DNA from: an uncultured Methanosarcinales archaeon
GTDB taxonomy: Archaea; Nanobdellota; Nanobdellia; Woesearchaeales; CAZOXR01
Direction: 5' to 3'
Length of the DNA stretch: 64,000 nucleotides
Assembly: GCA_964566535.1 (NCBI GenBank)
Contig: CAZMIO010000003.1
Span: forward strand, 89,153-153,152
In this document: one piece after another, positions 32,579 to 64,000 of the stretch
Layout: every line of letters starts with the position of its first letter
Position numbering within the stretch: the stretch's first letter is position 1
Notes under the pieces: generated by a model
Told to the model about the DNA's origin: nothing
Databases searched by the model: none
The model's input: the letters and a program-made list of their open reading frames with translations, nothing else
Translations under genes and position numbers: made by a program

Positions 32579-34555
32579 ATGTTCAGATCGCACGATATGA
32601 AGAAGGTAGTGATTTTTGCTCTTAATAATCACAGAGACACTATCCTTTCAAAGATACAAAAACTAGGTTTAATGCAGCCTGTTGACCTCAAAAAAAGCGA
32701 AGTCAAAGAGCTAAACAAACCATTAGATAATTCTAACTTAAGGAAAATATCAGATTCCCTCCTAAGAATCTCAAGGTTAGTTAACATATTAAAAATTCCC
32801 CCTAAGAAACCCTCATTTGTCCAATCAATTCTTGGACTAGACTTATTAGATAAAAAACCAGTCCAGCATCAAAATTACACTAAAGTACTACAAGAATCGG
32901 AATCATTTCTAAATAAACACGAAAAAGAATTAATCAATCTAGAAGACGACCACTCAAAACTCCTGGAAAGAGAAGAAGAACTTGGTGGGTTTCATGTAAT
33001 TGTAGAACTATTTGGTCAGCACAACATCCCCTTAGAACTCCTAGCATCAACTGAAAAGATCTCAATCGTAACTGGACGTGTCTCAAATGAACACAAGCAA
33101 AAACTAGAGCAGGAATTAAACGAAAAATTAAACTCAGAAGTCCATATCATCACAAAAGAACAAGATAAGAAAGAATCAATCATAACTGTAGTCTCATTAA
33201 AAGAAAAACTTCCAGACTTAAACTTCTTAATGAAGAAATATAACGTTTCACAATTCACGATTCCAGAATGGGGAATAAAAAAGGACCCTAAGAACTATGT
33301 TGAAACAGAACTCAAGAGTGTTGAGCTAAAAAAGGAAGAGATTATGGGCAAAATAAGCAAATATGCCTCTAACACATTTGAAGGAGCAGTAATCCTAAGA
33401 GAAGAACTAGAAATTCTAAAACACCGTTACGAGACAATACATTCTATGCTCGACTCAGAAAAATTCTTCGTACTTCAAGGATGGATTCTAGCAAACAAAC
33501 TAAAACATTTCGAAACTGAACTAAAGACATCAGTAAACGAAAGTATAATAATCAAAGTAGAAGACCCCAAGAAAGATGACAATCCACCAGTAGAATTATC
33601 AAATAAAAAACACTTCAAGCCATTTGAGATGCTAACTGAACTTTATGCACTACCTAAATATAAAGACCTAGACCCCACTTTCATCGTAGGTCCATTATTC
33701 CTTATTTTCGCAGCATTCATGTTAACAGATGCAGTTTACGGATTTTTCTTAGTTATACTAGGGATATTAATCTTAAAGAAATTCGCAAAATACTCAGAAA
33801 GTATGAAACAAATTGCAGTTATCATCTTAGGCATGGGGCTACTCACTGTAATGTTTGGTATTTTAACGGGTTCCTATTTTGGTGACTTCCCAAAGTACAT
33901 CTGGGGAATGGAACCTAAAGATTTAGCAATATGGAAAGACCCGCTAGAAGATCCATTATATTTCCTAATCATCGCAATTGGAACAGCAGTCATTTACTTA
34001 AACATCGGATTCATCCTAGGAGTTATTGAAGACTTCAGGAAACGAGACTTCAAAACAATGTTTAAGGAAAGATTAGTCTGGTTTATGCTCCAGGCAGGGA
34101 TAGCATTACTAATATTGAAGGCAAATCCAATTTTATTCTCACTCCTTGGCAAAGATATTGGTTTAGCAACATTAATCATCACAATTTCAGTACTATCTAT
34201 AGTGATAACATCAGGACCATTAGGTTTACTATCTATAACAGGACTCATGGGGGACATGATTTCATTTTCACGTCTTTTCGCACTATCATTATCTACAGCA
34301 GGAATTGCCCTAGCAGTCAACTTGCTGGCAAATCTTGTTAAAGACACACCATTTGTGGGAATAATCTTGGCAGCAATCATATTCTTAATTGGACATGCAT
34401 TTGGGTTTGTAATGAATTCAATAGGTAGTTTTGTACATTCACTAAGGTTACAATTCGTAGAATTCTTCGGAAGATTCTATGAAGGTGGTGGAGATAAATT
34501 CACCCCACTAAAGGAAGACCGTTATTATACAGAGGTTAAAGAAGATGACAATTGA
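32579..34555 (+). CDS. atpI: A-type ATP synthase subunit I (stator a-subunit)
   Basis: It is 658 aa, with a soluble N-terminal half and a C-terminal polytopic membrane domain containing the conserved Arg-bearing helix (..SFSRLFALSLS..). Confidence 0.85.
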   Translation: MFRSHDMKKVVIFALNNHRDTILSKIQKLGLMQPVDLKKSEVKELNKPLDNSNLRKISDSLLRISRLVNILKIPPKKPSFVQSILGLDLLDKKPVQHQNYTKVLQESESFLNKHEKELINLEDDHSKLLEREEELGGFHVIVELFGQHNIPLELLASTEKISIVTGRVSNEHKQKLEQELNEKLNSEVHIITKEQDKKESIITVVSLKEKLPDLNFLMKKYNVSQFTIPEWGIKKDPKNYVETELKSVELKKEEIMGKISKYASNTFEGAVILREELEILKHRYETIHSMLDSEKFFVLQGWILANKLKHFETELKTSVNESIIIKVEDPKKDDNPPVELSNKKHFKPFEMLTELYALPKYKDLDPTFIVGPLFLIFAAFMLTDAVYGFFLVILGILILKKFAKYSESMKQIAVIILGMGLLTVMFGILTGSYFGDFPKYIWGMEPKDLAIWKDPLEDPLYFLIIAIGTAVIYLNIGFILGVIEDFRKRDFKTMFKERLVWFMLQAGIALLILKANPILFSLLGKDIGLATLIITISVLSIVITSGPLGLLSITGLMGDMISFSRLFALSLSTAGIALAVNLLANLVKDTPFVGIILAAIIFLIGHAFGFVMNSIGSFVHSLRLQFVEFFGRFYEGGGDKFTPLKEDRYYTEVKEDDN

Positions 34556-37500
34556 GGATGTAGCTAACATCATCACAATTCCAATACAAAAGAATGGAGT
34601 TCCAGCTACTATCCAGGTTATTAACCAAACAGTAGCAGATACAGCATCTACTGCAATAACCAACATCTCAAACACAGCAGCAGATGCAGTAATCACCGTT
34701 TCAAACACAGCAGCAGATGTAGCAGTTAATACAACTAAAGCAGCAACAGTTCTATTAGGAATGGATTTCGGGAACCTAGATGGAAAAGCAGTAGCAATCA
34801 TTGGAGCAGGAATAGCAGTTGCAGCAGCAGGAATTGCATCAGCAATCGGAGCAGGAATTGTTGGTTCTACTGGAGCAAGAGAATCTGCAGAGGATCCAAA
34901 AAGATTTTCACAATCATTACTATTCCAAGCCCTACCTCAAACTCAGGGAATTTATGGTTTTTTAATAGCAATCCTAATCATGTTAGGCGCAGGAGTAATA
35001 GGCCCTGCAAAAGAAATAACTTTATCTCAAGGACTTGGCGCCCTAGGAGCTGGGTTAGCAGTTGGACTTGCAGCAGTATCAGCAATCGGTCAAGGGTTAG
35101 CCGCATCTGCTGGATTAGGAGCAACAGCAAGAGACAAAAAGATGTTCGGAAAATCAATCCTATTCTCAGTACTTCCAGAAACACAAGCACTATACGGATT
35201 CCTTGTAGCTATCCTTATATTAGTAGGATTCGGACTTTTCGGAACTGCACCAGTAGACATACCAATCGCAGCTGGTTGGGCAGCAGTTGGAGCAGGTCTT
35301 GCAATAGGTCTTGCAGGTATCAGTGCAATCGGTCAGGGAATCGCTGCAGCAGGAAGCATTGGGGCAGTCTTAGAAAAAAGCAAGGCATTTGGTAAATCAG
35401 TTATATTCGCAGTACTCCCAGAAACACAAGCCCTATACGGATTCATAATCGCAATCTTAATCCTCATTGGATTCGGAATCCTAGGAACAGCAACTACAGC
35501 ACTTTCATTTGGAGCAGCACTATTCACAATTGCAGCAGGATTAAGTGTTGGTCTTGCAGCAGTATCGGCAATCGGTCAGGGAATCGCAGCATCTTCAGGG
35601 GTAAATGCAGTAGCCTCAAATGACAAATCATTCGGAAAATCAATCCTATTCTCAGTACTCCCAGAAACACAAGCACTATACGGCTTTTTAATTGCCATCC
35701 TTCTTCTAGTTGGAGCAGGAATAATTGGAGCTGCAAAAGCAGGCATAACTACCCCAATAGGAGTCATTGCAATCGGTGCAGGACTTGCAGCAGGTATTGC
35801 AGGTATCAGTGCAATCGGTCAGGGAATCGCAGCCAGCGCAGGAATTAATGCAGTAAGTCAAAAACCAAAATCATTCGGAAAAGCTATTCTTTTCAGTGTC
35901 CTCCCAGAAACACAAGCACTATACGGCTTCCTAATAGCTATCCTCTTATTAGTTGGAGGGGGAATATTAGGAACAGCAAAGCTTGGAATTGAAATTCACG
36001 TTGGATTAATAGCAATCGGAGCAGGCCTTGCAACAGGTCTTGCAGCAATCTCAGCAGTAGGTCAGGGAATCGCAGCCTCATCAGGAATAGCAACAGTAGC
36101 TAAAGACGAAAAATCATTCGGAAAATCAATCCTATTCAGCGTCTTACCAGAAACACAAGCACTATACGGCTTCCTAATAGCAATCTTATTAATGGTAGGC
36201 GGAGGATTACTAGGTGCAATCAAATCAGGATTAAATATATCAACAGGACTTATTGCAATCGGTGCAGGCTTAGCAACTGGTCTTGCAGCAGTATCAGCAA
36301 TCGGTCAGGGAATCGCAGCCTCATCAGGCATTAACACAGTTTCAAAAAATCCAAAATCATTCGGAAAATCAATCCTATTCTCAGTACTTCCAGAAACACA
36401 AGCCCTATACGGCTTCCTAATAGCAATCCTACTAATGGTAGGCGGAGGAATAGTTGGAGCAACAACAACTGGATTATCATCCGGAATTGGATTAATCGCA
36501 GTTGGATGTGGTATAGCAGTTGGATTTGCAGCAGTCTCAGCAGTAGGTCAGGGAATCGCAGCCAGCGCAGGAATCAATGCAGTAAACGAAAACCCAAAAT
36601 CATTCGGAAAATCAATCCTATTCTCAGTCTTACCAGAAACACAAGCACTATACGGCTTCCTAATAGCAATCCTACTAATGGTAGGCGGAGGATTAGTTGG
36701 AATAGTCAAACAAGGAATAGACCTCCCTATAGGATTAGTGGCAATCGGAGCTGCCATTGCAACAGGAATTGCAGGTATCAGCGCAGTAGGTCAGGGAATG
36801 GCAGCATCATCTGGAATAGCAACAGTAGCTAAAGACGAAAAATCATTCGGAAAATCAATCCTATTCTCAGTCTTACCAGAAACACAAGCACTATACGGCT
36901 TCCTAATAGCAATCCTACTAATGGTAGGGGGAGGATTATTGGGTGTAATCAAAGAAGGCATAAGCATAGCTATTGGTTTTGTGGCAATCGGTGCAGGACT
37001 TGCAGCAGGTTTAGCAGCAGTCTCAGCAGTTGGTCAAGGAATCGCGGCCTCATCCGGTATTAATACAGTTTCAAGAAATCCAAAATCATTCGGAAAATCA
37101 ATCCTATTCAGCGTCTTACCAGAAACACAAGCACTATACGGCTTCCTAATCGCTGTACTTCTACTTGTAGGCGGAGGAATAATCGGAGTAATAAATCCTA
37201 ATATCAACTTACCAGTTGGATTAATAGCAATCGGTGCAGGACTTGCAACAGGTTTAGCAGCAGTCTCAGCAGTAGGTCAGGGAATGGCAGCAGCTGCAGG
37301 AGCAGAAGCAGCATCTGAAGATCCAAAATCATTCGGAAAATCAATCCTATTCAGCGTCTTACCAGAAACACAAGCACTATACGGCTTCCTAATAGCAATC
37401 CTACTAGTAGCTTCAGGAGGAATACTGGGAGCAGCAAAACCAGGCCTTACAGTACCGATTGGACTTGTAGCAGTTGGTGCAGGAGTATCTATCGGAGTTG

Positions 37501-37916
37501 CATGTTTGTCTGCTCTTGGTCAAGGAATCGCAGCATCCTCCGGTATCGGATCTATACTTGAAAGAAAGAATATTTTTGGAAAGTCAGTATTGTTCTCAGT
37601 ACTTCCAGAAACACAAGCTCTTTACGGAATTATCATATCCATACTTCTTTTGACAGGAGTTGGACTTTTAGGTACAATAAAATCAGGGATAACAATTACA
37701 CAAGGTATTGGTGGAATTGGAATTGGAATAGCAATGGGTCTAGCCGCAGTTAGTGCAGTAGGTCAAGGAATTGTGTCTGCATCTTCAATAGGTGCTGCAG
37801 TAAGAGACCAAAAATCAACTGGAAAAAGCCTAGTATTAAGTGTTATTCCAGAAACATACGCAATATTTGGATTATTAATATCAATACTATTATTGATAGG
37901 ATTAAAATTTATATGA
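34545..37916 (+). CDS. atpK: A-type ATP synthase proteolipid (c subunit), 13 fused hairpins in one 1123-aa polypeptide
   Basis: Thirteen tandem units of about 81 aa have the form GAGLA.GLAA.SA.GQG.A...KSFGKSILFSVLPETQALYGFLIAILL. Twelve carry the E of P-E-T-Q, and the first has P-Q-T-Q. The start is uncertain, either M at 34545 or MDFGNLD at 34758. Confidence 0.85.
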   Translation: MTIEDVANIITIPIQKNGVPATIQVINQTVADTASTAITNISNTAADAVITVSNTAADVAVNTTKAATVLLGMDFGNLDGKAVAIIGAGIAVAAAGIASAIGAGIVGSTGARESAEDPKRFSQSLLFQALPQTQGIYGFLIAILIMLGAGVIGPAKEITLSQGLGALGAGLAVGLAAVSAIGQGLAASAGLGATARDKKMFGKSILFSVLPETQALYGFLVAILILVGFGLFGTAPVDIPIAAGWAAVGAGLAIGLAGISAIGQGIAAAGSIGAVLEKSKAFGKSVIFAVLPETQALYGFIIAILILIGFGILGTATTALSFGAALFTIAAGLSVGLAAVSAIGQGIAASSGVNAVASNDKSFGKSILFSVLPETQALYGFLIAILLLVGAGIIGAAKAGITTPIGVIAIGAGLAAGIAGISAIGQGIAASAGINAVSQKPKSFGKAILFSVLPETQALYGFLIAILLLVGGGILGTAKLGIEIHVGLIAIGAGLATGLAAISAVGQGIAASSGIATVAKDEKSFGKSILFSVLPETQALYGFLIAILLMVGGGLLGAIKSGLNISTGLIAIGAGLATGLAAVSAIGQGIAASSGINTVSKNPKSFGKSILFSVLPETQALYGFLIAILLMVGGGIVGATTTGLSSGIGLIAVGCGIAVGFAAVSAVGQGIAASAGINAVNENPKSFGKSILFSVLPETQALYGFLIAILLMVGGGLVGIVKQGIDLPIGLVAIGAAIATGIAGISAVGQGMAASSGIATVAKDEKSFGKSILFSVLPETQALYGFLIAILLMVGGGLLGVIKEGISIAIGFVAIGAGLAAGLAAVSAVGQGIAASSGINTVSRNPKSFGKSILFSVLPETQALYGFLIAVLLLVGGGIIGVINPNINLPVGLIAIGAGLATGLAAVSAVGQGMAAAAGAEAASEDPKSFGKSILFSVLPETQALYGFLIAILLVASGGILGAAKPGLTVPIGLVAVGAGVSIGVACLSALGQGIAASSGIGSILERKNIFGKSVLFSVLPETQALYGIIISILLLTGVGLLGTIKSGITITQGIGGIGIGIAMGLAAVSAVGQGIVSASSIGAAVRDQKSTGKSLVLSVIPETYAIFGLLISILLLIGLKFI
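34830..37900 (+). repeat. intragenic tandem repeat with a period of about 243 nt and about 13 copies, encoding the c-subunit hairpins
   Basis: The string ccagaaacacaag recurs near 35175, 35418, 35661, 35904, 36148, 36390, 36634, 36877, 37120, 37360 and 37605. The central copies are nearly identical over more than 100 nt. Confidence 0.9.
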
Positions 37917-37919
37917 TGA

Positions 37920-38489
37920 ATGGTGATACAAATGAACGGTGCGCAAAATATAAAAAACAAAATTTTGGAAGAAGCAAAGATAGAAGCTGATAAAATATTA
38001 GCAGAAGCTAAACTAGAAGAAGATAAGATAGCTAGCAACAACAAAAAGGAAGAAGAAAACTACACAAAAAAAAGAGAAGACGAAATAGAAAAAGCAGTAA
38101 AACTCTTCAAAGACAAAACATTAGCTCAAGCTAGATTAAAGGCAAAAAGAGATTACTTAGATGAACGTGAAACAATTATAGAAAAATACATCAAAGAAGG
38201 CATAAAATCAATAAGCAGTTCATCAAAGGACTACCAGGAATATATGAAAAAAATCCTGACAAAAAACATAAAACTCCTTTCAGGAGAGATAACAGTTTTC
38301 TGCAACAAAAGTGACCAACCACTGGTAAAAAAGATTGTAGGGGATGAAGCAAAAGTAGAAACCGCTAGAATTACTGGTGGAGTTACTATGGAAGACTCAA
38401 CCGGAGTTAAAATTGACGAGTCAATTGAATCAAAGGTAGAAAGAGTTAAGGATACGTTAAGACAAAAAATAGTAAAGTCAATCGAGTAA
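37920..38489 (+). CDS. atpE: A-type ATP synthase subunit E
   Basis: It is 189 aa, with a charged helical N-terminus (ILEEAKIEADKILAEAK), and sits at the operon position after K. Confidence 0.7.
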   Translation: MVIQMNGAQNIKNKILEEAKIEADKILAEAKLEEDKIASNNKKEEENYTKKREDEIEKAVKLFKDKTLAQARLKAKRDYLDERETIIEKYIKEGIKSISSSSKDYQEYMKKILTKNIKLLSGEITVFCNKSDQPLVKKIVGDEAKVETARITGGVTMEDSTGVKIDESIESKVERVKDTLRQKIVKSIE

Positions 38490-38493
38490 AAAA

Positions 38494-39537
38494 ATGGATG
38501 TAACAATACCTTTAGTAATAGGAGCAGCAACTTTAGCAGGAGTTGTAGTAATAGCTCCAGTTACAAAGTACGCATTGGATATCTATCCTTTCCTGTATGC
38601 CAACACAAGGTGTTCTTCTAGACTAAGTTTTTTACTGACTAAGAAGTCATACGAAGAATTATTGGCATCAACAAGTAAAGATGAGGCTTTTGCTTTGCTA
38701 GAGGATTCCTATTATAGTAAGATTGTTGAACATTCAAAAGATTTTTTTTCATTTTCAGAATCATTAGAAGATGACGCTTACAATACTTATAACTGGCTTT
38801 CAACAATTGTACCTCCAGTTATAGCTCCAATAATCAATTCCCTAAATATGAAGTTCGAGATTAGTGAAATAAAAAAGATATTAAATGCATTAAAGGAAAA
38901 CAAGGATGTCGAAGAAATAAAGTTCATAAGTGACCCTGAGTTGAAATTAAAACTAGAGTCAGCAAAAGACTTCCAGTCATTAACAGTAGCATTAGAGGGG
39001 ACCCATTACAATGTAGTATTTCAGAATAAATCATTAGACCAATTAAGTGAACTCAATACTCAACTTGACAAATATTATCTTGGGAACCTTATTAGTACAA
39101 TCAATGTTGTTACAGACAAAAAGGCAGCAGAACCATTCTTGGAATATGCAAGGGTTCTTATTGACATGTTTAACATTAGAGCGTTGATAAGAGGGATAGG
39201 CGCAAACAAAAACACCGAGCTTATAGAATCTGGAAATCTAAACAAGGAAGAACTCACCGGGGTAACTGATATTGCTCAATTAGGATCAACACTAACTAAC
39301 AGCATATATGGGGAGTTCATTGGAGATATCAACAATTTGAATATTGAAAATGGATTCTATAAATTCTTTTTGAAACAAGCAGGTAACGTAGTAGCAAAAT
39401 ACACAATTAAGTCAGGTTCAGTTGTAAGGTTCATAATCATGAAAGAAATAGAAACAAGAAACTTAAATTCATTAATAAAACTAAAATCAGAAGGCTTCCA
39501 ACAGGAAAAAATAAGGCCTTTGTTGATGGTGGAATAA
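38494..39537 (+). CDS. atpC: A-type ATP synthase subunit C
   Basis: It is 347 aa and helical, in the operon position between E and F. Confidence 0.7.
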   Translation: MDVTIPLVIGAATLAGVVVIAPVTKYALDIYPFLYANTRCSSRLSFLLTKKSYEELLASTSKDEAFALLEDSYYSKIVEHSKDFFSFSESLEDDAYNTYNWLSTIVPPVIAPIINSLNMKFEISEIKKILNALKENKDVEEIKFISDPELKLKLESAKDFQSLTVALEGTHYNVVFQNKSLDQLSELNTQLDKYYLGNLISTINVVTDKKAAEPFLEYARVLIDMFNIRALIRGIGANKNTELIESGNLNKEELTGVTDIAQLGSTLTNSIYGEFIGDINNLNIENGFYKFFLKQAGNVVAKYTIKSGSVVRFIIMKEIETRNLNSLIKLKSEGFQQEKIRPLLMVE

Positions 39538-39538
39538 G

Positions 39539-39838
39539 ATGGACATAGCAATAATAGCAGATAAAGACACAATAATTGGATTCAAATTAGCAGGAGTAAG
39601 AAACTCAGCAGTATTCAACGAAAAAACAATAAAAGAAGACATAATAAAATTCAAAGAGTCTCATATTTTAATCTTGACAGAAAATATTGCAAAGACTGTA
39701 AGGGAAAACAAATTAGAAAAACTAATTGAAGGAGTGATTGTTGAAGTTCCTGATAAAAATGGATCAACAGGACTTGCAACAAACGAAATATCAAGATTAT
39801 TTGAAGAGGCAATAGGTGTAAAACTTAAAGAAAATTAA
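39539..39838 (+). CDS. atpF: A-type ATP synthase subunit F
   Basis: It is 99 aa, starting [20 protein letters not shown], which is typical of A/V-type F subunits. Confidence 0.7.
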
Positions 39839-39854
39839 CCTCGGAGGGATTATA

Positions 39855-41639
39855 ATGGAATCAAAAACAGAATCAAACGGAAAAATCATCAAAATTGCAG
39901 GACCAGTTGTAGTTGCATCTGGTATGGCTGGAGTTAAGATGTATGAGGTCGTAAGAGTGGGAAAAGAAAGACTTATTGGAGAAGTCATTGAGCTCTTAGA
40001 AGACAAAGCAACAATCCAGGTTTATGAAGAAACATCTGGAATTGCACCAGGAGCAGAAGTTGTAGCAACAGGATCATCACTATCAGTTGAATTAGGTCCA
40101 GGAGTCATCGGAAATATCTATGACGGAATCATGAGGCCTTTAAACATCATCCAGGAAAAGTCTGGAGAATTCATTGCTAGAGGAATTGAAGCTGACTCAA
40201 TTGACCACAAAAAGAAATGGCCCTTTAAGCCACTAGCAAAAAAAGGCGACAAAGTAACTGGTGGACAGATCATAGGAGAAGTTACAGAAACATCAATGGT
40301 CGTACAAAGAATAATGGTCCCTTCAGATGTTGAGGGGGAACTTACCGAGATAGTTGGTGAAGGATCTTATACCGTAAAATCAACAATAGCAAAAGTAAAA
40401 ACAAAAGATGGAGAAACAGAAATTAATCTGATGCAAAAATGGCCAGTTAGGATTCCAAGACCTAACAAAGACAAACAAGAACCATCAATCCCATTAATAA
40501 CTGGACAAAGAATATTAGATACATTTAATCCATTAGCAAAAGGGGGAACAGCAGCTATCCCAGGTGGATTCGGAACTGGTAAGACTGTAACTCAGCAATC
40601 ATTGGCTAAATGGTGTGATGCAGATATCATAGTCTACATTGGATGTGGAGAACGAGGAAATGAGATGACAGATGTTCTAAAAACATTCCCTCATCTAACA
40701 GATCCAAGATCAGGTAAACCATTATTAGAAAGAACAGTTATCATCGCAAATACATCAAACATGCCAGTGGCAGCAAGAGAAGCATCAGTCTATACTGGAA
40801 TTACAATTGCTGAATATTTCAGAGACATGGGCTATGATGTAGCATTGATGGCTGACTCAACCTCAAGATGGGCAGAAGCAATGAGAGAAATTTCATCTAG
40901 ACTGGAAGAGATGCCAGGGGAAGAAGGTTATCCCGCTTATTTAGCTACAAGACTTTCTCAATTCTATGAAAGAGCAGGCCGTGTCAAAACCTTAAGCGGG
41001 AAAGAAGGCTCAGTTTCAGTTATTGGAGCTATCAGTCCTCCAGGTGGAGACTTCTCAGAACCAGTTACTCAAAATACGCTAAGAGTTAACAAAACATTCT
41101 GGGCATTAGACAAGAGCTTAGCATCCAGAAGACATTTCCCGGCAATTAATTGGTTAAACTCTTATTCATTATACTTAGAAAGCGTAACAGCTTGGTTTAA
41201 TGAACATTCAGGGGAATCATGGAGAGACTTAAGGAACAAAGCAATGGAACTTCTACAAAAAGAAGAACAATTGCAAGAAATTGTTCAATTGGTTGGTCCT
41301 GATGCTTTACCAGACACCGAAAGGTTGATCTTGGAAGTTACCAAAATCTTAAGAGAAGACTTCCTTCAGCAAAACGCTTATCACGATGTGGATGCTTTCT
41401 GTCCAATCAGAAAACAGACTTTAATGTTGAAATTAATACTAGAGTTCTATGATATGGCACAGGCTGCATTAAAAGAAGGAGCTCCAATTGACTCAATTGC
41501 AGGAATGAAGATAAAAGATTCACTTGCAAGGATGAAAGAACATAGCAACGACACATTTGAACAACATTACGAGGAGTTGAAGAAAAACATGACAACAGAG
41601 TTTAGCCAGATTAAATCTGGGGGTGATTCAAATGAGTAG
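39855..41639 (+). CDS. atpA: A-type ATP synthase catalytic subunit A
   Basis: It has the P-loop [10 protein letters not shown], is 594 aa, and contains the non-homologous insert typical of A/V-type A subunits. Confidence 0.95.
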
Positions 41640-43008
41640 TATAATAGAATATTCAAGCATAAAAGAAATCGCAGGACCGTTGATGATAGTTGAAAAGGTA
41701 AAAAACGTTGCTTACGGTGAATTAGTTGAAATAAAGATAGGAAAAGAAAAAAGAACCGGACAAGTTCTTGAAGCAAGAGACGACATAGCAGTTGTTCAGG
41801 TGTTCGAAGGAACTAGGGGCCTTGCAACAAAAGGAGTAACAGCAAGATTCACTGGGGAAACAATGAAGGTTGGCTTAAGCAAAGATGTTATTGGTAGAAT
41901 CTTTAACGGAATTGGAAAGCCAATTGACAAGGGTCCTGAAATCATAGCAGAAAAGAGAATGGATGTTAATGGACTAGCAATAAATCCAACTGCAAGAGAA
42001 TTCCCAGAGGAATTCATTCAAACAGGAATTTCCACAATTGATGTGATGAACACATTAGTGAGAGGTCAAAAACTTCCATTATTCTCAGAAGCGGGACTTC
42101 CTCATAATGAGATTGCAGCTCAGATTGCAAGACAGGCAGCTGTTAAGGGAAAAGATAATTTTGCGGTAATATTTGCAGCAATGGGAATCACTTTCGAAGA
42201 AGCAAAATTCTTCATGAATGACTTCGAAAGAACAGGAGCAATTGAAAACATGGTGGCTTTCATCAACCTAGCTGACGACCCAGCAATTGAAAGGATCATT
42301 ACACCAAGAATCGCCTTAACAACTGCTGAATACCTAGCTTACGAAAAAGACATGCATATCTTAGTTATTTTAACTGATATGACAAACTATTGCGAAGCTT
42401 TAAGGGAAATTGCAGCAGCTAGAAACGAGATTCCTGGAAGACGTGGATATCCTGGATACATGTATACTGACCTAGCAATGAACTACGAAAGAGCTGGAAA
42501 GATACACGGCAAAAAAGGATCTGTAACTCAGATTCCTATATTGACAATGCCGCAAGGGGACATTTCTCACCCAATTCCAGACCTAACTGGCTACATTACA
42601 GAAGGACAGATTGTAGTTTCAAAAGAACTACACAGAAAAGGAATCTATCCACCGATAAATCCATTACCATCTTTATCTAGATTGATGAACGAAGGTATAG
42701 GGGAAGGAAAAACAAGAGAAGACCATTCTGGAGTTTCTAACCAGCTTTATGCTGGCTATGCAGAAGGAAACGACTTAAGAGACTTAGTAGCAGTTGTTGG
42801 AGAAGAAGCACTGTCTGATAAGGATAAAAAGTTCTTAAAGTTCGCAGAAGGCTTTGAAGACAAGTTCATAAGACAAGGTAGAGATGAAAATAGGGACATT
42901 GATTTATCCTTACAAGTTGGATGGGATTTATTCAAGTCATTACCTGTCGAAGAATTAAAGAAACTAGACTTAAAGCACATTGAAAAGTTTTTGAAGAAAC
43001 AAGCATAA
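41623..43008 (+). CDS. atpB: A-type ATP synthase subunit B
   Basis: It is 461 aa and homologous to A/V-type B subunits (..[18 protein letters not shown]..). It overlaps the atpA 3' end. Confidence 0.95.
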
Positions 43009-43012
43009 GAAC

Positions 43013-43642
43013 ATGGCGTCTCAAATAAAAGCAGCAACACGAATGGAATTGTTAAGGCTGAAGAAAAAAGTAGCTTTAGCTGGAAAAGGACATAAATTGC
43101 TGAAAGAAAAGAGAGATGCCCTAGTTTCTGAATTCTTCAAATTAATCGACAGCCTAAAAGCAATAAGAAAAGAAATGGAAGACAAGATTTCAGTTGCATT
43201 CAACTCTTTAATCATGGCACAAGCAATTTCTGGTGTTGGAGAAATTGAACGTGCAGCAGACTCCACAAAAGAAGTGGGAGAAATAGAATTCAAACCCAAT
43301 AACATAATGGGAGTTAAAGTTCCTATTTTTAATTTTAAGAAGGCTGAAACAACAATAGCAGATAAAGGATATTCTTTGTTCTCAACATCTTTAGAGTTAG
43401 ACACTGCATCAAAGAACTTCGAAGAAGTTCTAAATATAATCGTAAAGCTAGCAGAAGCAGAAGCAACAGTAAGAAGACTAGCAGAAGAAATAAAGAAAAC
43501 CAAAAGAAAAGTAAACGCTTTAGAAAGAATCTTAATCCCAAGACTAAATGACGATATTGTATATATTAAGATGCGTTTAGAAGAGATGGAAAGAGAAAAC
43601 TTCTCAAGATTAAAGGTAATTAAGAAGCGTATTTCAGAATGA
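43013..43642 (+). CDS. atpD: A-type ATP synthase subunit D (central stalk)
   Basis: It is a 209-aa coiled-coil protein starting MASQIKAATRMELLRLKKKVALAGKGHKLLKEKRDAL. Confidence 0.85.
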   Translation: MASQIKAATRMELLRLKKKVALAGKGHKLLKEKRDALVSEFFKLIDSLKAIRKEMEDKISVAFNSLIMAQAISGVGEIERAADSTKEVGEIEFKPNNIMGVKVPIFNFKKAETTIADKGYSLFSTSLELDTASKNFEEVLNIIVKLAEAEATVRRLAEEIKKTKRKVNALERILIPRLNDDIVYIKMRLEEMERENFSRLKVIKKRISE

Positions 43643-54187: not shown

Positions 54188-54258
54188 TATTTGTAAATAT
54201 AACTTCAATTCTAGCCTTAACTGGATATGTGATACTATCTAAAGAAAACAGAATTTTT

Positions 54259-55464: not shown

Positions 55465-55588
55465 TTTAAATTAACACTTAAGTTAAAGCAGTGGTTAAAA
55501 TGAATGGTATTAAAAATCTTCCTATATTTATCACTATTAAGAAGTCATTTTCATAATATTTTTAAAGCCTTTACCGTTATCCAGCCCC

Positions 55589-56986
55589 ATGGAGCTTAAA
55601 TCTGGAGATAATGTTGTAATAGCTGGTGGTGGACCTGCTGGTAGTTTAGCAGCTATCATTCTCATGGATCATGCTAGTACAATGGACCTTCCCCTAGAAG
55701 TAACAGTCCTCGAAAAAAAAGATTTTGATAAACAAGGTCATGGAGGATGCAATTCTTGTGCTGGAGTAGTTTCTACCCAATTAGTTGATGATTTATCCAA
55801 AATGGGGATCCACATCCCTGAACATGTAATTCAAAGATATATTGACGGTTACACTGTCGAAACACCTAGGGAATCTTTATCTATGACAGATGCTAATGAG
55901 CATATTGTTACAGTATTTAGAGGAAATGGACCTGGACGTGCAAGTTATGACGAATCTGTAAGTTTTGATGGATTTTCAAAAAGTGAAGCAGAAAAAAGAG
56001 GAGCTCAGTTCGTAAATACAACTGTAACCTCAATAACACCTCCCAAATCTTTAGAAGAAAGAGTAGCAATTACTACAAAGGTTTCAGCAAAAGAAGGTGA
56101 AGTTGTTTATGAAGCTGACCTTCTTATTGGAGCTCTTGGAATGCCTGGAGTAAAAATCTTTGAAGATGCAGGTTTTGGTTACAAGAAAGCAAGAACTGTT
56201 AGACTTGCTCAAACTGAAATTGCAATGGATCCAGAAACAATAGGGGATATATTTGGGAAACACGTTCATGTTTACTACCTTGATATTCCTGGAATCTGGC
56301 ATGCTGCAATTACTCCAAAAAGAGAATACATAACTGTCTCAATTTTAAGTTCAGGCAATTCATCCAGAGAAACCTCTCGCTCCTTAAGACAAAAATTAGA
56401 TCAATTTCTTAATCATGATGCAATAACAAGGAAAGTCACAGATAGACTACCAGACGATCAAGCAATTGCCGATGCTTTAGAACGGGGGATGGTACTAGAA
56501 CCAAGTTGTTTTTGTGCTCCAGAAATGCCCTACAAAGATTCAGTTAATCCTTATGGGGATAGAATTGCCATTATAGGGGATGCAGCATATTCAAGATTAT
56601 TCAAAAACGGCGTTGAGTCCGCTTTTACAACAGCTGAAATGGCAGTAAAAGCAGCACTAGATCATGGAGTATCAAGAGAAGAATTAAAAGCGCATTATCA
56701 TGAACCAGCAGCTAGGAGATTTAATGATGATAACCGATATGGTAGGGCCCTTTTTAGAATTGGGGGTTACTCATCAAGAGTTAGAGGGATGGTTGATTCC
56801 CACCTTAGGGTTGCTCAAACTGACTCAGATAATGGAAGAAGATTAAAAGACATGTACTGGTCAATGTCTACTGCTGGTAAGCCCTATAGAGATATTTTTG
56901 CAGATGTATTACACCCGGGTCTTTTAATGGAAATAGGCATTGCCTCAGTAAGAGGTGTAGTACCAGCTTATGTTAGAAGAAGATAA
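55589..56986 (+). CDS. FAD-dependent oxidoreductase (geranylgeranyl-reductase / flavin monooxygenase-like; non-host composition)
   Basis: The N-terminal VVIAGGGPAGSLAA is a dinucleotide-binding motif. It is 465 aa. Confidence 0.5.
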   Translation: MELKSGDNVVIAGGGPAGSLAAIILMDHASTMDLPLEVTVLEKKDFDKQGHGGCNSCAGVVSTQLVDDLSKMGIHIPEHVIQRYIDGYTVETPRESLSMTDANEHIVTVFRGNGPGRASYDESVSFDGFSKSEAEKRGAQFVNTTVTSITPPKSLEERVAITTKVSAKEGEVVYEADLLIGALGMPGVKIFEDAGFGYKKARTVRLAQTEIAMDPETIGDIFGKHVHVYYLDIPGIWHAAITPKREYITVSILSSGNSSRETSRSLRQKLDQFLNHDAITRKVTDRLPDDQAIADALERGMVLEPSCFCAPEMPYKDSVNPYGDRIAIIGDAAYSRLFKNGVESAFTTAEMAVKAALDHGVSREELKAHYHEPAARRFNDDNRYGRALFRIGGYSSRVRGMVDSHLRVAQTDSDNGRRLKDMYWSMSTAGKPYRDIFADVLHPGLLMEIGIASVRGVVPAYVRRR

Positions 56987-57072
56987 ATAATCTATTCCTA
57001 AAACCAAACATACACTCCAAACTATATGTTAAATCAATACCTTTTTATACCACCACATTAACCAAAACTTCA

Positions 57073-57618
57073 ATGGAAAACAAAAAAAATTACATCAAAG
57101 GAATGGTTTTTGCAGCGTTATTCGCAGCATTAACAGCAGCAGTTTCTCCAATCAAAATTCCGTTAGGATTCACACCAGTCCCAATCACATTACAAACATT
57201 GATGGTACTTTTAGCAGGAGCGCTACTAGGAGCTAACCTAGGAGCTTTATCTCAATTTCTATATGTATTAGTTGGAGCATTAGGATTACCAGTATTTGCA
57301 GGTGGCGGCTCAGGTTTTGGAGCTTTATTCGGACCAACCGGCGGTTATCTTTTCGGTTTCATTGCAGCAGCTTATGCAGTAGGAAAACTAGTTGAAAAAA
57401 CAAAAAAACCTTCTCTAGTACAAATAATCATAGCAATGGTTGTTGGATCATTAGTAATATATGTGTTCGGGGTAACTGGAGCAATAGTCGTAACAGGAAG
57501 ACCTTTAACTGAAATTCTAATTGGATGGGTTCTACCCTTCCTTATTGGAGATACAGTAAAACTAATTGCAGCAGCACTAATAGCAAGAAAAGTAGATATG
57601 AGTAGATATCTCCAATAA
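57073..57618 (+). CDS. bioY: biotin ECF transporter S component
   Basis: It is about 180 aa with six TM helices and a Gly-rich core (GGSGFGALFGPTGGYLFGF) typical of BioY. Confidence 0.8.
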   Translation: MENKKNYIKGMVFAALFAALTAAVSPIKIPLGFTPVPITLQTLMVLLAGALLGANLGALSQFLYVLVGALGLPVFAGGGSGFGALFGPTGGYLFGFIAAAYAVGKLVEKTKKPSLVQIIIAMVVGSLVIYVFGVTGAIVVTGRPLTEILIGWVLPFLIGDTVKLIAAALIARKVDMSRYLQ

Positions 57619-59693: not shown

Positions 59694-60875
59694 ATGGGAA
59701 ACGCTATTTATCTATCAAATAGACATTTTGTACCTGACCACCCCATAGAACAATTAGCAGTTTTAGACAGCCTCAACCTCAGAAAACCAGGCCATGCTGA
59801 ATATTTCATTGAAACTCACTTCGGAGAAAAAGGTGTTTCAACAACTACAGAAAAGAGTACCAGAACAAGAGAAGAAATTGCTGCCATCTACTGCGGTGAC
59901 CCAGATATAAGAAATATTTACTGGCGCTATCTTAATCTAACATTAGCACGAGCCAAAGACGAAGTAGCAGAACAACTACAACCCCACCAAAGAAAATTAT
60001 ACTTTGATCGTGAACGAGACGCTGCAAGAGAAAGGGAATCGGAAGGTCCATCTGTACAAAGACTAAATGATTTAGTTGAAAATACACTTGGGGGATATCT
60101 ACCAAGAACTGAATTAGAAGAAAGGACTGAATCTAGAGAGTTTAGAGCATGGACATATGAAGCTGCCAGGCCCTACCTCCCAGGGGATTATTATGAATTT
60201 TGGGATGACAAACAGGGTTATAAGGATAAACTCAATGCCATTGACTTAAATGATCCAGATGAACTATATCTATTTGTCAGGAACCTGTTAGGCATAACAG
60301 TAACTAGAGCAGAAATAGATCACTTAATGACTGATGATACAAGAGATAAAATACTAGACTTAACTGCAGAATGTAGAACTGATTTCGTAGAATTTCAAAA
60401 ATACCAAACAGTCGATGATGATGGGTCCTTTATATCTCAAATGAGAAAATGGAATCCTTATGCATTTTGGGACGGGAATGTTTGGGATAGGTTAGATGGC
60501 AGACATATAGATTCAGAAGGGGATGTTCGAAAAGCATCAGCCATAATGAGAGGTTTATTTCGTTTTCATGGTTCCAACAGAAAATTGCTTTATAAAGATC
60601 CACGGAACGGAGATATGAGAGTTAGAGTAGAAAAATACCCTCAAATGAAAAATCTCAGAGAAGCTAACGAACTTTGTGATTACACTGATTACCAATTAGA
60701 GGTTATTTTAGAAGCCCCAATTAGAGGAATAGATAAACTATTCTTAATAGTTGATTTTGACAAGGAAATGGAGGAAAGAGATCAACAAGAGATACTAAAT
60801 AACCTCCATGCACTATATGCAAGAGACTTTGAATTAAGAAGGAGAAGTTTTAAGCAAAGAAGAAGACCATTGTAA
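59694..60875 (+). CDS. hypothetical protein (non-host composition)
   Basis: It is 393 aa, Arg/Asp/Glu-rich with low Lys. No motif was recognised. Confidence 0.35.
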   Translation: MGNAIYLSNRHFVPDHPIEQLAVLDSLNLRKPGHAEYFIETHFGEKGVSTTTEKSTRTREEIAAIYCGDPDIRNIYWRYLNLTLARAKDEVAEQLQPHQRKLYFDRERDAARERESEGPSVQRLNDLVENTLGGYLPRTELEERTESREFRAWTYEAARPYLPGDYYEFWDDKQGYKDKLNAIDLNDPDELYLFVRNLLGITVTRAEIDHLMTDDTRDKILDLTAECRTDFVEFQKYQTVDDDGSFISQMRKWNPYAFWDGNVWDRLDGRHIDSEGDVRKASAIMRGLFRFHGSNRKLLYKDPRNGDMRVRVEKYPQMKNLREANELCDYTDYQLEVILEAPIRGIDKLFLIVDFDKEMEERDQQEILNNLHALYARDFELRRRSFKQRRRPL

Positions 60876-61240: not shown

Positions 61241-62020
61241 ATGGTAATATTTGATAAAGTTGAAGAAAAAGATGTAACAAGAGCAATTATTTCAGGTTTT
61301 GAAAAAGATCTTCTAGACCATGTTGAGAGCGACGTAATAATTGTAGGGGGAGGCCCTTCTGGTTTAACAGCAGCAAAAGTTTTAGCAGAAAAAGGCGTTA
61401 AAGTTCTAATTGTAGAAAGAAACAATTATCTAGGCGGCGGATTCTGGATTGGTGGATTCTTAATGAACAAAATTACTGTTAGGGCTCCAGGACAAAAAGT
61501 GCTTGATGAAATCGGAGTTCCATACAAAGAATATGTAAAAGGACTATATGTGGCAGACGGACCACATGCCTGCTCAAAATTAATAGCAGCAGCTTGCGAT
61601 GCAGGAGCAAAAATACTTAACATGACAAAGGTTGATGATGTAGTTATTAGGGAAAATTGTGTTGCAGGAGTTGTTATCAACTGGACTCCAATATCAGCAT
61701 TACCTAGGGAAATAACCTGTGTTGATCCTATCGCAATACAATCAAAAGTTGTAATTGACGGAACAGGTCATGATGCAGAAGTTCTAAAAGCATTAGAGTC
61801 AAGAGGAATCCTAAAAACAAAAGGCTTTGGTGCAATGTGGGTTGAAAAATCAGAAGATGCAGTAGTTGAGCATACTGGAGAAGCATACCCTGGACTAATT
61901 GCGATGGGAATGGCTGTATCAACCTTACACGGATTGCCAAGAATGGGTCCAACATTCGGATCAATGCTTCTATCTGGAAAGAAAGCAGCAGAAGAAGCAT
62001 TAAAAATGCTTGGAAAATAA
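61241..62020 (+). CDS. thi4: thiazole synthase / ribose-1,5-bisphosphate isomerase family (Thi4)
   Basis: The FAD/NAD motif [14 protein letters not shown] is followed by ERNNYLGGG. The protein is 259 aa, and these are archaeal Thi4 hallmarks. Confidence 0.85.
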
Positions 62021-62043: not shown

Positions 62044-63315
62044 CTACAAACCCCAAGGCTTCAAAACCCTTCTCAAAGTTTCCTTACCTTGCATATAAGC
62101 TAAGAAAACCCCATAATTAGTAATTGGAACTCCAACCGACTCCAAATCACGAAGCCGAGCAGCAAGCTTCTGACTATCTATCATACACCCACCACAATGA
62201 ATTATTAATTTATATTTAGAAATATCTTTCTTATCTCTAAACTCCCTCCCAAATGCATACTCCACTTCCACCCCAGAATATTTCTTCTTAATAAAGTTAG
62301 GTATCTGCACCGTTCCAATATCTTCAGCAATCCTAGAATGGTTGCAAGCCTCCGTAATCAATATCTTATCTCCCTCACATAAATCATCCATCGCCTTGAT
62401 TCCATCAGCAAACAACGTAAGCTTCCCCTTACTCATAAAGTTAATCATCATAATAGAAAAAGTAGTAACATCATACTCGGGAGGCGTCCAAGGATCAATA
62501 ATATCAATTGCTTGTGAATCAGTAACTATACACTTAATCTTCTTCTCCTTCAAACCATCAAGAACCTTAAGATACCTCTCTTTCTCTAAAACATCTCCTG
62601 CACGAGCCTTACCCAAATCCATCCTAAATGAAACAGGATAAGCAAAGTTCCGAGTAATATACTCCTCAGCCATCAATTGAGGTCTCAAGTATCTCCCAGG
62701 CGGAGTCTCTGCATCCATAGGAATATTCAACAAATAGTATTCATCCCTCACAACAAAAGGAAGTAATTCCAATTTCTTATTCTTAGATGTAAAATTCTCA
62801 AGAATAAAATTCAATAACCGAGCTCTATCATTTTCATCAACAGCTTTTAATTTTATTTTTTTTATAAAGTTATTTTCAATGATATTTTTTCCAATGGAAT
62901 TTAAGTCAATTTCATTATCATTAAAAATATTATAAACAATAAATATTTGCTTATCATATTCTCTAGCCTGAGAAATAATTCCATTCTCAACCCCAAAATC
63001 AGAATCACTAGGATTTACCACCAAAAGCACTAAATCACACTCTTTAAGGTCATTCTCAGCCTTCTTCCTTTTCTTCTCACCTAATTCTCCACTTTCATCC
63101 ATCCCAGCAGTATCAAATAACTTTACAGGACCCATTCCATGAATCTCACATAAAGTAATTTTAGTATCAGCAGTCGTCCCAGGCGTAACATCAACAATAG
63201 AACATTCCTGCTGAGTCAAAAGATTCATCAAACTACTTTTACCAGAATTAACCTTCCCAAATATCCCAATATTATCTCTTTGGATCACCATAACCATCCC
63301 CCATTCTCCTACCAA
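62044..63315 (-). CDS. hydF: [FeFe]-hydrogenase maturase GTPase HydF
   Basis: It has the N-terminal GTPase motifs (GKVNSGKSSLMN, DTAG). The C-terminal CNH...(46 aa)...HCGGC matches the HydF CxHx44-53HCxxC [4Fe-4S] motif. Confidence 0.7.
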   Translation of the reverse strand: MVGEWGMVMVIQRDNIGIFGKVNSGKSSLMNLLTQQECSIVDVTPGTTADTKITLCEIHGMGPVKLFDTAGMDESGELGEKKRKKAENDLKECDLVLLVVNPSDSDFGVENGIISQAREYDKQIFIVYNIFNDNEIDLNSIGKNIIENNFIKKIKLKAVDENDRARLLNFILENFTSKNKKLELLPFVVRDEYYLLNIPMDAETPPGRYLRPQLMAEEYITRNFAYPVSFRMDLGKARAGDVLEKERYLKVLDGLKEKKIKCIVTDSQAIDIIDPWTPPEYDVTTFSIMMINFMSKGKLTLFADGIKAMDDLCEGDKILITEACNHSRIAEDIGTVQIPNFIKKKYSGVEVEYAFGREFRDKKDISKYKLIIHCGGCMIDSQKLAARLRDLESVGVPITNYGVFLAYMQGKETLRRVLKPWGL

Positions 63316-64000
63316 CCGACCTCACAACTCTCGTAACACAACCAGCACAATCAATAGGATTCTCATAAATGCAAACTTTGTCAGGATACAACTGATAAAA
63401 TTCCCTATATTTCATTGGAGTAATATTCGGCATCAATAAATTAGCACCAGACTGCAATGCCTTCTCCCTACCATCGCTAGGATTCAAAGTTTGCAAAGCA
63501 GTTGTAGCAGAAATAAAAATATCCTTACATACCAATCTAGTAACAGCAATCATTTTCAAACTCATATCAAAACTCCCATCCTTCTCTCCAACTAAAGGAG
63601 TTTCAGGATGGCAAATATATGGCCCCATCCCAGCCATGTTAATTCCTAATTCTTCATAAAGCAAAATATCATCAGCTAAATCAGAAACTGTTTGACCAGG
63701 CAACCCAATCATCGGACCAGTTCCAACTTGATAACCAACCTCTTTCAACTTCTTAATCAACAAAAGCCTCTCATCAAAAGAATTCTTAGTAGCAGAACCA
63801 GCAGGATGCAAACTCTCAAACAATTCCTTATTAGAAGTCTCAAACCTTATCAAACATCTTTTAGCACCAGCAGAAAAAAACTTCTTATACTCCTCAACCG
63901 ACCTCTCACCCAAACTCAAAGCAACCCTACAATCACACTTCTCCAAAATCTTCTTAATCAACCCTTCAATCACTTCAGCAGAATAATAATCATCCTCACC
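63272..64000 (-). CDS. hydE: radical-SAM maturase, HydE/BioB-like, 5'-truncated by the window edge
   Basis: The C-terminal two-thirds of a BioB/HydE-type TIM barrel are present (...GYQVGTGPMIGLPGQT...GMGPYICHPETPL). It overlaps the HydF start, and its N-terminal CxxxCxxC lies beyond nt 64000. Confidence 0.55.
   Translation of the reverse strand, partial: GEDDYYSAEVIEGLIKKILEKCDCRVALSLGERSVEEYKKFFSAGAKRCLIRFETSNKELFESLHPAGSATKNSFDERLLLIKKLKEVGYQVGTGPMIGLPGQTVSDLADDILLYEELGINMAGMGPYICHPETPLVGEKDGSFDMSLKMIAVTRLVCKDIFISATTALQTLNPSDGREKALQSGANLLMPNITPMKYREFYQLYPDKVCIYENPIDCAGCVTRVVRSVGRRMGDGYGDPKR

Follow-up and report, generated by a model that had tools for sequence, protein, structure and literature searches.

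A bacterial-type hydG-hydE-hydF maturase operon in a Woesearchaeotal archaeon, found apart from hydrogenase structural genes

What are genes for maturing the H-cluster of [FeFe]-hydrogenase doing at the end of a stretch of archaeal DNA, and which hydrogenase do they serve? The labor is divided among three proteins: HydG splits tyrosine to yield an Fe(CO)2(CN)-cysteine synthon, HydE converts two such synthons to a di-iron precursor, and HydF keeps that precursor beside its own [4Fe-4S] cluster (the CxH...HCxxC motif) and hands it over to apo-HydA. A first-pass annotation of the 64,000-nt stretch analysed here ("the window") had placed HydF and a BioB/HydE-type radical-SAM protein at its very edge. 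The DNA comes from an archaeon: genes for aIF2alpha, aIF5B, PAC2 and an A-type ATPase in the window mark it as such, and near-identical proteins are named Ca. Woesearchaeota by NCBI. It is a marine small-genome Woesearchaeote, and its habitat is probably oxygen-deficient water. (A technical note: tRNA and Rfam scans of the window gave no matches.)

The HydF candidate is an open reading frame at 62044-63315 on the minus strand; translation probably begins at the ATG at 63297, with AGGAG 8 nt before it, which gives a 417-aa product. Its features are:

62044..63297, minus strand: hydF, H-cluster scaffold with a GTPase-type domain, 417 aa (TIGR03918, Pfam, PDB 5KH0)
63235..63258, minus strand: HydF G1/P-loop, GKVNSGKS (motif position)
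63103..63114, minus strand: HydF G3, DTAG (motif position and 12-sequence alignment)
62917..62934, minus strand: HydF G4-equivalent, YNIFND, aligned with NKID of Thermosipho/Thermotoga HydF (5KH0, 3QQ5)
62185..62346, minus strand: HydF [4Fe-4S]/[2Fe] motif, C318-N-H320, 46 aa, H367-C-G-G-C371 (CxHx46-53HCxxC)
62338-62346, minus strand: CNH, part of the iron-sulfur motif
62185-62199, minus strand: HCGGC, part of the iron-sulfur motif

The crystallised HydF 5KH0 aligns over the full length of this protein (E=5.5e-53), and two other crystallised HydF proteins, 3QQ5 and 5LAD, are also full-length homologues. When the sequence is put to profile models, the thresholds for HydF_tetramer (PF18133; 134.6 bits, threshold 22.6), HydF_dimer (PF18128; 30.8 bits, threshold 23.4) and MMR_HSR1 (68.9 bits) are all passed; the match to NCBIfam TIGR03918 GTP_HydF (E=1.4e-93, 313.8 bits) stops just short of the equivalog cut-off of 325.55, and it is because of this narrow shortfall that the protein bears generic names in GenBank ("GTP-binding protein", "50S ribosome-binding GTPase"). 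The spacing from CNH to HCGGC is exactly the 46 residues that had been read from the sequence at first pass, and it lies within the published consensus CxHx46-53HCxxC (PMC6212873). The accompanying appeal to GTPase motifs needs qualification: G1, G3 and the HydF domains are there, but the G4 motif NKxD is not. G19, K20 and S21 of the P-loop are invariant in a 12-sequence alignment, the P-loop is kept in 82 of 82 tabulated members of the HydF subfamily, and the G2 Thr is present, in TPGTT. The guanine-specificity motif (N/T)KxD lacks its canonical Lys and Asp; nearly all of the 82 members, archaeal and bacterial, have Y/F-N-x-F instead (a few begin with C, H or L). Since the loss extends across the subfamily, including bacterial members encoded beside hydA, it argues for a variant nucleotide pocket and does not contradict HydF function. 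The score below the equivalog cut-off and the missing canonical G4 both count against the explanation that is favored below. The identical 417-aa protein is found on 7 metagenome contigs, and a 415-aa version (a later start codon; the DNA is the same) on three NCBI MAG contigs.

The hydF start overlaps the upstream gene by 26 nt. What lies beyond nt 64000 can be read from metagenome contigs that are 100% nucleotide-identical across hydGEF:

63272..64000, minus strand: hydE, C-terminal 242 of 351 aa, running past the window edge (TIGR03956)
63338..63373, minus strand: HydE C-terminal accessory-cluster motif C-x7-C-x2-C, CIYENPIDCAGC (motif position)
4225-5598 of contig L001, entirely past nt 64000 and directly upstream of hydE: hydG, 457 aa (TIGR03955)

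Even the partial HydE scores 234 bits on TIGR03956 as against 47 on BioB. At full length, on L001, it reaches 349.7 bits (cut-off 254.6), and the rival models BioB (82), PylB (160) and ThiH (84) all stay far under their respective cut-offs. The overlapping radical-SAM gene is thus HydE and not biotin synthase; bioA, bioD and bioF are absent as neighbors, and a BioY biotin transporter is found instead. The radical-SAM CX3CX2C motif, which was to be looked for past the edge, is CKNDCLYC; the spacing of the C-terminal Cx7Cx2C motif is that of the Cys311/319/322 site of Thermotoga HydE. HydG, likewise to be sought there, scores 507.3 bits on TIGR03955 (cut-off 312.15) and has both an N-terminal CSNDCLYC (CX3CX2C) and a C-terminal CTSC-x22-C (CX2CX22C). 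With hydG upstream and the HydE CxxxCxxC in hand, the operon hydG-hydE-hydF is complete, and the window ends in the 3' two-thirds of it, on the minus strand. HydF, HydE and HydG are genuine, intact H-cluster maturases; on the strength of their sequences, they would be active in this organism. The operon recurs on L001-L006 and L146-L148, and because the hydGEF DNA is 100% identical in all nine of these contigs, a population pN/pS cannot be calculated for it.

Where, then, is the hydrogenase? The neighborhood offers two landmarks:

61241..62020, plus strand: Thi4-type thiazole synthase, transcribed toward hydF with 23 nt between the two (Pfam annotation)
32579..43642, plus strand: A-type ATPase operon, which in relatives has hydCBA on one or the other flank

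Thi4 is the operon boundary and also a synteny anchor: the order hydF-Thi4-DUF1284 is repeated in another relative, L093. Relatives use three positions for hydCBA, one upstream of hydG and one on each flank of the ATPase operon (31318-32575 upstream, 44192-45517 downstream), and hydCBA is absent from all three. More broadly, hydA, hydB and hydC were not found in the 64-kb window or in ~10 kb past its edge (contig L146), ~74 kb in total. Regular expressions for the HydA motifs P1 (TSCCP/TTCCP), P2 (MPCxxK) and P3 (ExMxCxxGCxxG) find nothing in the six frames of the window; phmmer with bacterial HydA, HMM searches with the filters off and tblastn with Woesearchaeotal HydA return only ferredoxin-domain noise there, and no HydA match by phmmer, HMM or tblastn comes from the window, L001 or L146. 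A search by tblastn for a hydA pseudogene remnant found none, so that any loss was not a recent decay in place. In the genome collection, 12 archaeal relatives have no HydA homologue or H-cluster motif within 10 kb on either side of hydGEF. With no hydA at any examined position, the earlier expectation of an [FeFe]-hydrogenase nearby is left unsupported. Two other candidates were considered and set aside. One was the 293-aa, Pfam-less product of 31318-32199, next to a 2-oxoacid:ferredoxin oxidoreductase, as an "ultraminimal" group E hydrogenase: it has only 2 Cys, shows weak PhoU and AbrB-like matches, and its gene is conserved in relatives just ahead of the ATPase operon. The other was a 206-aa ORF upstream of hydG, as a possible hydrogenase or accessory factor: it lacks cysteine, matches no family and is restricted to the lineage.

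The relatives show what is missing. In L092 (HydF 76% identical) and L094 (66%), which share the downstream synteny with the window, hydC-hydB-hydA stand immediately upstream of hydGEF; the HydA of these two reaches 803 bits on NF040763 (group A6), with P1, P2 and P3 intact. The six-gene cluster hydC-hydB-hydA-hydG-hydE-hydF of these close relatives is an NADH-dependent HydABC-type group A [FeFe]-hydrogenase with its maturases. The Thi4, DUF1284, ATPase and CBS neighborhood of the sister lineages is syntenic with the window. At the hydA position of L092/L094, upstream of hydG, the window lineage has the 206-aa ORFan and metYXW; after atpD-CBS, the site of hydCBA in four relatives, it has TCA-cycle genes. 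Linkage is not obligatory: hydCBA lie beside the ATPase operon in other relatives and on a separate contig in two related MAGs with unlinked hydGEF (MP5_5_87, proteins MBW2974811.1 and MBW2975151.1; SRP062349_co5_67, contigs 80 and 70).

The origin of these genes probably lies outside the archaea. GTDB species genomes yield 273 HydF relatives, and among the best 80 of them 69 are bacterial; in a neighbor-joining tree the archaeal HydF fall in at least 2 separate groups. HydF, sitting in a mostly bacterial subfamily, was probably acquired from bacteria, as judged from these sequence relationships. Spirochaetes/Syntrophales loci (L045, L056, L065 and L070) have HydF of the same subfamily (57-64% identity) and the same G-E-F order, with hydA directly upstream, but their hosts are bacterial. 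The order hydA-hydG-hydE-hydF is common to loci of the window's family and a spirochaete locus, and the whole Woesearchaeotal hyd locus most likely came as a block from bacteria, in what we presume to be the direction of transfer. The window group and the spirochaete differ unevenly: HydE is only ~39% identical, HydG and HydF ~63%. In L092, HydE appears to have been replaced.

The explanation that we favor, with a probability of about 0.7, is that hydGEF came with a bacterial block, that hydCBA have become uncoupled from them, and that the maturases work for a HydA whose gene lies elsewhere in the genome. The operon of the window would be part of a Woesearchaeotal hyd locus that the sister lineages have in fuller form; in the window lineage the structural genes would have been separated from the maturases, with the ORFan and the met genes now at the hydA site; and the maturases may still have their HydA at some other place in the genome. 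A fermentative H2 metabolism, claimed at the outset for this genome, can reasonably be inferred.

Are the maturases instead orphans? If the lineage recently lost hydCBA, then the intact hydGEF would be a targetless leftover that will decay. The three syntenic sites without hydCBA fit such a loss, and so do the lineage-specific genes at the L092/L094 hydA position and the TCA-cycle genes after atpD-CBS. No HydA is traced to the three MAGs of the window lineage, either: of 14 HydA matches followed up by accession (6 of them also by contig; among the best 120), none belongs to GCA_030750365.1, GCA_030752895.1 or GCA_030749885.1. That tracing, however, drew on the best 120 matches, and the MAGs are probably only ~70-78% complete (on an inferred mapping). 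By the spacing of WGS prefixes against BioSample numbers, JASMDH, JASMIE and JASMJD would correspond to ETNP3_MAG_36, ETNP7_MAG_89 and ETNP8_MAG_29 of PMC10936187, with a chance of coincidence roughly estimated at 2-4%. That paper describes ETNP7_MAG_89, from KOfam/Prokka annotation, as having an FeFe-type hydrogenase; since the maturases could have set off that annotation, it is not used as evidence here. The genes themselves do not look abandoned: none of the three ORFs is broken, each catalytic motif is kept, and tblastn turned up no pseudogene remnant of hydA. Nor are their rates accelerated relative to lineages that keep hydA: HydG, HydE and HydF of the window are as distant from outgroups as those of hydA-keeping relatives (HydG against L013 is 65.8% for the window, 65.6-67.2% for these relatives), and there is no sign of relaxed constraint. 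We regard this loss as unlikely.

A more radical proposal keeps the maturases at work in a lineage without any HydA: constrained HydGEF would make Fe-carbonyl-cyanide species for some other client, for example an apo-hydrogenase made by a host or partner cell. We consider it highly improbable; if it were true, such a maturase-only lineage would be the counterpart of the many archaea with HydA but without maturases. The general form of the idea, in which the Fe-CO/CN species go to a non-HydA protein or, in a DPANN symbiosis, to the apo-hydrogenase of a partner, is likewise highly improbable. Maturases that are intact and apparently constrained while their hydrogenase is not found do hint at it indirectly, as does the mirror-image puzzle that most archaeal HydA-encoding genomes are without HydEFG (PMC11216029), but there is no conserved candidate beside hydGEF (the ORFan upstream being cysteine-free and confined to the lineage), and bacteria and sister archaea have genes of this subfamily in physical linkage with hydA. 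That the proteins are a generic Era/Der-like GTPase and a BioB/PylB/ThiH-like radical-SAM enzyme, as the GenBank names, the sub-threshold TIGR03918 score and the missing G4 might suggest, is effectively refuted by domains and context: Der and MnmE models reach at most 76 bits on HydF, the HydF dimerisation and tetramerisation domains and CxHx46HCxxC are present, HydE and HydG exceed their equivalog cut-offs by ~95 and ~195 bits with BioB, PylB and ThiH far under theirs, and the same HydF subfamily adjoins hydA in several loci.

How does the operon compare with what is known? The proteins are the same three, with the same cofactor-binding motifs, as in the bacterial (Thermotoga, Clostridium, Shewanella) and algal HydE/HydF/HydG systems, but the host is a DPANN archaeon. 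The window HydF is ~35% identical (by eye) to that of Thermotoga, on a long branch in a divergent subfamily in which Y-N-[LIV]-F replaces the G4 NKxD. The Woesearchaeotal/DPANN HydABC loci of group A3 (NCBI "A6") belong to the same phylum and locus family; unlike them, the window genome shows the maturase half only, the structural genes not being found in 74 kb. To call all this notable for a small-genome archaeon, as was first done, overstates its novelty. [FeFe]-hydrogenases of Woesearchaeota/DPANN were published in 2021 (Huang et al. 2021, PMC8421398), in a paper that leaves the maturases unmentioned, and those of archaea generally thereafter (Greening et al. 2024, Cell, PMC11216029), with full HydEFG sets in 5 of 130 HydA-encoding archaeal genomes; most archaea with HydA being without HydEFG, an alternative archaeal maturation route has been proposed (PMC11216029). 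What the present locus and its relatives add is that one Woesearchaeotal clade uses canonical bacterial-type maturases, sometimes in a six-gene hydCBA-hydGEF cluster, which helps to delimit the scope of the "alternative pathway" question. The window genome is a test case for distinguishing gene scattering from a true maturase-only lineage. The maturases also support, short of proving, an anaerobic, H2-evolving fermentative lifestyle in oxygen-deficient waters. A minor point concerns expression: hydG appears to have a TATA-like promoter element of its own, TTTATAA, ~30 nt 5' of its ATG.

Two overlapping reading frames lie on the minus strand of 62044-64000, at the edge of the window:

62044-63315, minus strand: hydF, 417 aa from the likely ATG start at 63297, which has AGGAG eight nt before it
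63272-64000, minus strand: hydE, partial; shares 26 nt with the beginning of hydF and runs off the window

The ATG at 63297 is also the choice of two independent gene callers on seven metagenome contigs. The first-pass annotation had taken these genes for the hydrogenase maturases HydF and HydE, and rightly so. The hydF product scores 313.8 bits (E=1.4e-93) on NCBIfam TIGR03918, slightly under the equivalog cut-off of 325.55 bits, and at most 76 bits on Der, MnmE and similar general GTPase models; Pfam finds HydF-specific tetramerisation (134.6 bits) and dimerisation (30.8 bits) domains together with MMR_HSR1; and the whole protein can be aligned to the HydF crystal structures from Thermosipho and Thermotoga (5KH0, E=5.5e-53). 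Its cluster motif is exactly the CxH-46aa-HCxxC noted earlier: C318-N-H320, 46 residues, H367-C-G-G-C371, fitting the published consensus CxHx46-53HCxxC (PMC6212873). The GTPase motifs claimed for it are there as G1 (GKVNSGKS), G2 (TPGTT) and G3 (DTAG), but G4 is not: NKxD is absent from this HydF, and where the solved structures have NKID the alignment shows YNIFND (62917-62934, minus strand).

Seven metagenome contigs from ENA and JGI carry exactly this HydF protein, and three MAG contigs at NCBI carry it with another start called. Across hydG-hydE-hydF (hydGEF), all nine loci compared are 100% identical in DNA to one another and to the window, and were therefore used as its continuation past nt 64000 (for one of these contigs, L001, window coordinate w = 69903 minus L001 coordinate). 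The radical-SAM gene does continue there, as had been predicted. On the HydE model the partial protein reaches 234 bits, versus 47 on BioB. The full protein (351 aa; CKNDCLYC in its N-terminal part, Cx7Cx2C in its C-terminal part) reaches 349.7 bits on TIGR03956, above the cut-off of 254.6, versus 82 on BioB, and is no biotin synthase. Among the genes around hydGEF there is no bioA, bioD or bioF; what the neighborhood offers instead is a transporter gene:

57073-57618: BioY transporter

Directly upstream of hydE lies the anticipated hydG, whose 457-aa product (CSNDCLYC and CTSC-x22-C) reaches 507.3 bits on TIGR03955, where 312 is the cut-off. The operon thus runs hydG-hydE-hydF, its reading frames overlapping. 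A cysteine-free 206-aa ORFan stands 62 nt upstream of hydG, and past it metY, metX and metW diverge on the opposite strand. AAAATTTTATAAAC (L001 4185-4200, beyond the window end), some 30 nt ahead of the ATG of hydG, includes TTTATAA and looks like an archaeal BRE/TATA element; once separated from hydA, an operon of bacterial derivation may have come under an archaeal promoter of its own. (In the sister Woesearchaeotal locus L092, hydG begins only 19 nt after hydA.)

Where, then, is the hydrogenase, which was expected nearby? No HydA homologue or H-cluster motif is found in any frame of the window or of L001 and L146, which extend about 10 kb past nt 64000; nor does either turn up in the 10 kb on each side of hydGEF at 12 archaeal loci from the genome collection. 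We favor, at a probability of roughly 0.7, a canonical maturase operon that would have been taken up by horizontal transfer and would serve a HydABC hydrogenase encoded elsewhere in the same small genome. A metagenome scan located the full order hydC-hydB-hydA-hydG-hydE-hydF in L092 (HydF 76% identical) and in a second sister locus, L094 (66%). Their 568-aa HydA, with TTCCPAW, MPCTAKK and EIMACYGGCIGGGGQ, scores 803 bits on NF040763, 'NADH-dependent [FeFe] hydrogenase, group A6', the HydABC type named A3 by Huang et al. (PMC8421398) and Greening et al. (PMC11216029). The downstream order hydF, Thi4, DUF1284, ECF transporter is common to L092, another relative (L093) and the window. With L092 HydA as query, the matches listed include a large clade from Woesearchaeota, Nanoarchaeota and Altiarchaeota, several of them on the same contig as a HydF match, as equal contig sizes show (200370, 80787, 23980, 11160, 7645).

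Separation of the two gene sets has precedents in genomes without hydA beside hydGEF: MP5_5_87 has hydGEF on JAHWHQ010000045 (MBW2974811.1) and hydCBA on JAHWHQ010000068 (MBW2975151.1), and SRP062349_co5_67 has them on contigs 80 and 70. In four relatives (L153, L149, L157, L159) hydCBA follows atpD-CBS; in L155 it precedes a PhoU-like gene and atpH-atpI. Both of these ATPase flanks lie within the window, at 31318-32575 and 43013-45517, complete with the homologous PhoU-like and CBS genes, and hydCBA is on neither. There is an oxidoreductase operon on one of them and, on the other, the genes for citrate synthase, isocitrate dehydrogenase and aconitase. Among the HydA matches traced, none comes from GCA_030750365.1, GCA_030752895.1 or GCA_030749885.1, the (incomplete) MAGs carrying near-identical HydF, or from the 184,902-bp contig recorded for this HydF.

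Might hydCBA simply have been lost, leaving orphan maturases? We consider this, the main rival, unlikely. All HydG, HydE and HydF motifs are intact, and in ungapped alignments the three proteins stand as far from outgroups as do their counterparts in L092 and L094, which keep hydA (HydG against the related locus L013, 65.8% versus 65.6-67.2%; HydF against a spirochaete, 63.3% versus 60.9-63.6%). Selection thus shows no sign of having relaxed, which favors a living system with a client, although a very recent loss would be compatible with unrelaxed maturases; a tblastn search of the region upstream of hydG brings up no remnant of hydA. A different or external client is more doubtful still. (Two HydE types occur in otherwise orthologous Woesearchaeotal clusters, L092 8964-10001 versus L001 5576-6631: HydE of L092, L013 and others is only ~44% identical to the window type and 56-57% identical among themselves and to spirochaete HydE, while HydG and HydF remain 72-77% identical, a pattern that suggests single-gene replacement inside the operon.)

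HydF homologues more than 60% identical are very many. With one genome taken for each GTDB species, a scan gave 273 relatives, the best 80 comprising 69 bacterial proteins (Phycisphaerae/Sedimentisphaerales, Prolixibacteraceae including cultured Prolixibacter, Spirochaetes, Syntrophales, Margulisiibacteria) and 11 archaeal ones, all Woesearchaeota-like. Every subfamily member has EACNHSR...HCGGCM, and nearly all have Y/F-N-x-F for NKxD (a few with C, H or L first), so that G4 loss is a subfamily trait and not a gene defect. This subfamily (L008-L089) is widespread, from Prolixibacter, Sedimentisphaerales, Syntrophales and Spirochaetes to Woesearchaeota; it may have a nucleotide specificity other than that of the HydFs studied to date, and the NCBI model misses its members, which receive generic GTPase names. 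A hydA gene adjoins hydF in six bacterial loci (L041, L045, L050, L056, L065, L070), the order in spirochaetal L045 being hydA-hydG-hydE-hydF. In a neighbor-joining tree (100 bootstraps) a long branch separates the whole subfamily from Thermotoga HydF, and archaeal HydFs form at least two separate groups among bacteria (69% support for the window's group, 85% for the second). Phylogeny had been proposed to settle archaeal versus bacterial origin; with deep nodes without resolution, a bacterial origin is the parsimonious reading, not a proven one.

The archaeal host is sound: the window (35.8% G+C) encodes aIF2alpha, PAC2, aIF5B and an A-type ATPase operon, alongside enolase, serine and cysteine branches, TCA enzymes and 2-oxoacid:ferredoxin oxidoreductase, and near-identical HydFs (MDP7115819.1 and two others) are 'GTP-binding protein [Candidatus Woesearchaeota archaeon]' in GenBank. 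Maturases and host stand, the nearby hydrogenase does not, and the significance is smaller than first thought: a 2021 paper, in which maturases go unmentioned, described the A3 hydrogenases of Woesearchaeota (PMC8421398), and a 2024 Cell paper reports full HydEFG sets in 5 of 130 archaeal genomes, with hydF among hydA neighbors (PMC11216029). Judging by the accession series of the MAGs and by relatives from Saanich Inlet and trench sites, the habitat is probably oxygen-deficient marine water. Four third-party MAGs titled 'uncultured Methanosarcinales archaeon' (L011, L028, L071, L085) have low-G+C, Woesearchaeota-type hydGEF clusters, one (L028/L150) also hydCBA of that type; the label is probably wrong.

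Bacterial-type MEP genes (DXS, IspG, DXR; 16944-19936 and 23750-24880, plus strand) match the set described for Woesearchaeota subgroup J (Huang et al., PMC8421398). The TCA complement is unusually full for a Woesearchaeote: citrate synthase, isocitrate dehydrogenase and aconitase lie at 45098-49892, on the opposite strand directly past CBS, the place of hydCBA in four relatives, and succinyl-CoA synthetase and 2-oxoacid:ferredoxin oxidoreductase at 26271-31173. The gene at 28220-29227 (minus strand) joins a GNAT acetyltransferase domain, at the N-terminus, to an oxidoreductase gamma-type subunit (POR domain).

Scattered genes, many without a family match, differ greatly from their neighbors in amino-acid make-up (K+I+N 9-15% versus 22-38%; rich in R, G, A and P), with GC3 even lower (0.15-0.26):

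13987-15685
16409-16909
19933-20361
21710-22705
25635-26258
49913-50296
52804-57618
59694-60875 (393 aa)
L001 3542-4162

Two such genes, the 393-aa one and the 206-aa ORF upstream of hydG, flank the hyd operon and are confined to the window lineage.

The ATPase proteolipid (c/K) gene (34545-37916, plus strand) has a 1123-aa product in which the ATP-synt_C hairpin is repeated 13 times (716 bits); L155 has a lone c subunit of 76 aa at this position. TRF finds eight tandem copies of a 243-nt unit, and since these are only ~76% alike in DNA the fusion is real and not an assembly artefact. It recalls the K subunit of Methanopyrus kandleri, which likewise has 13 hairpins.
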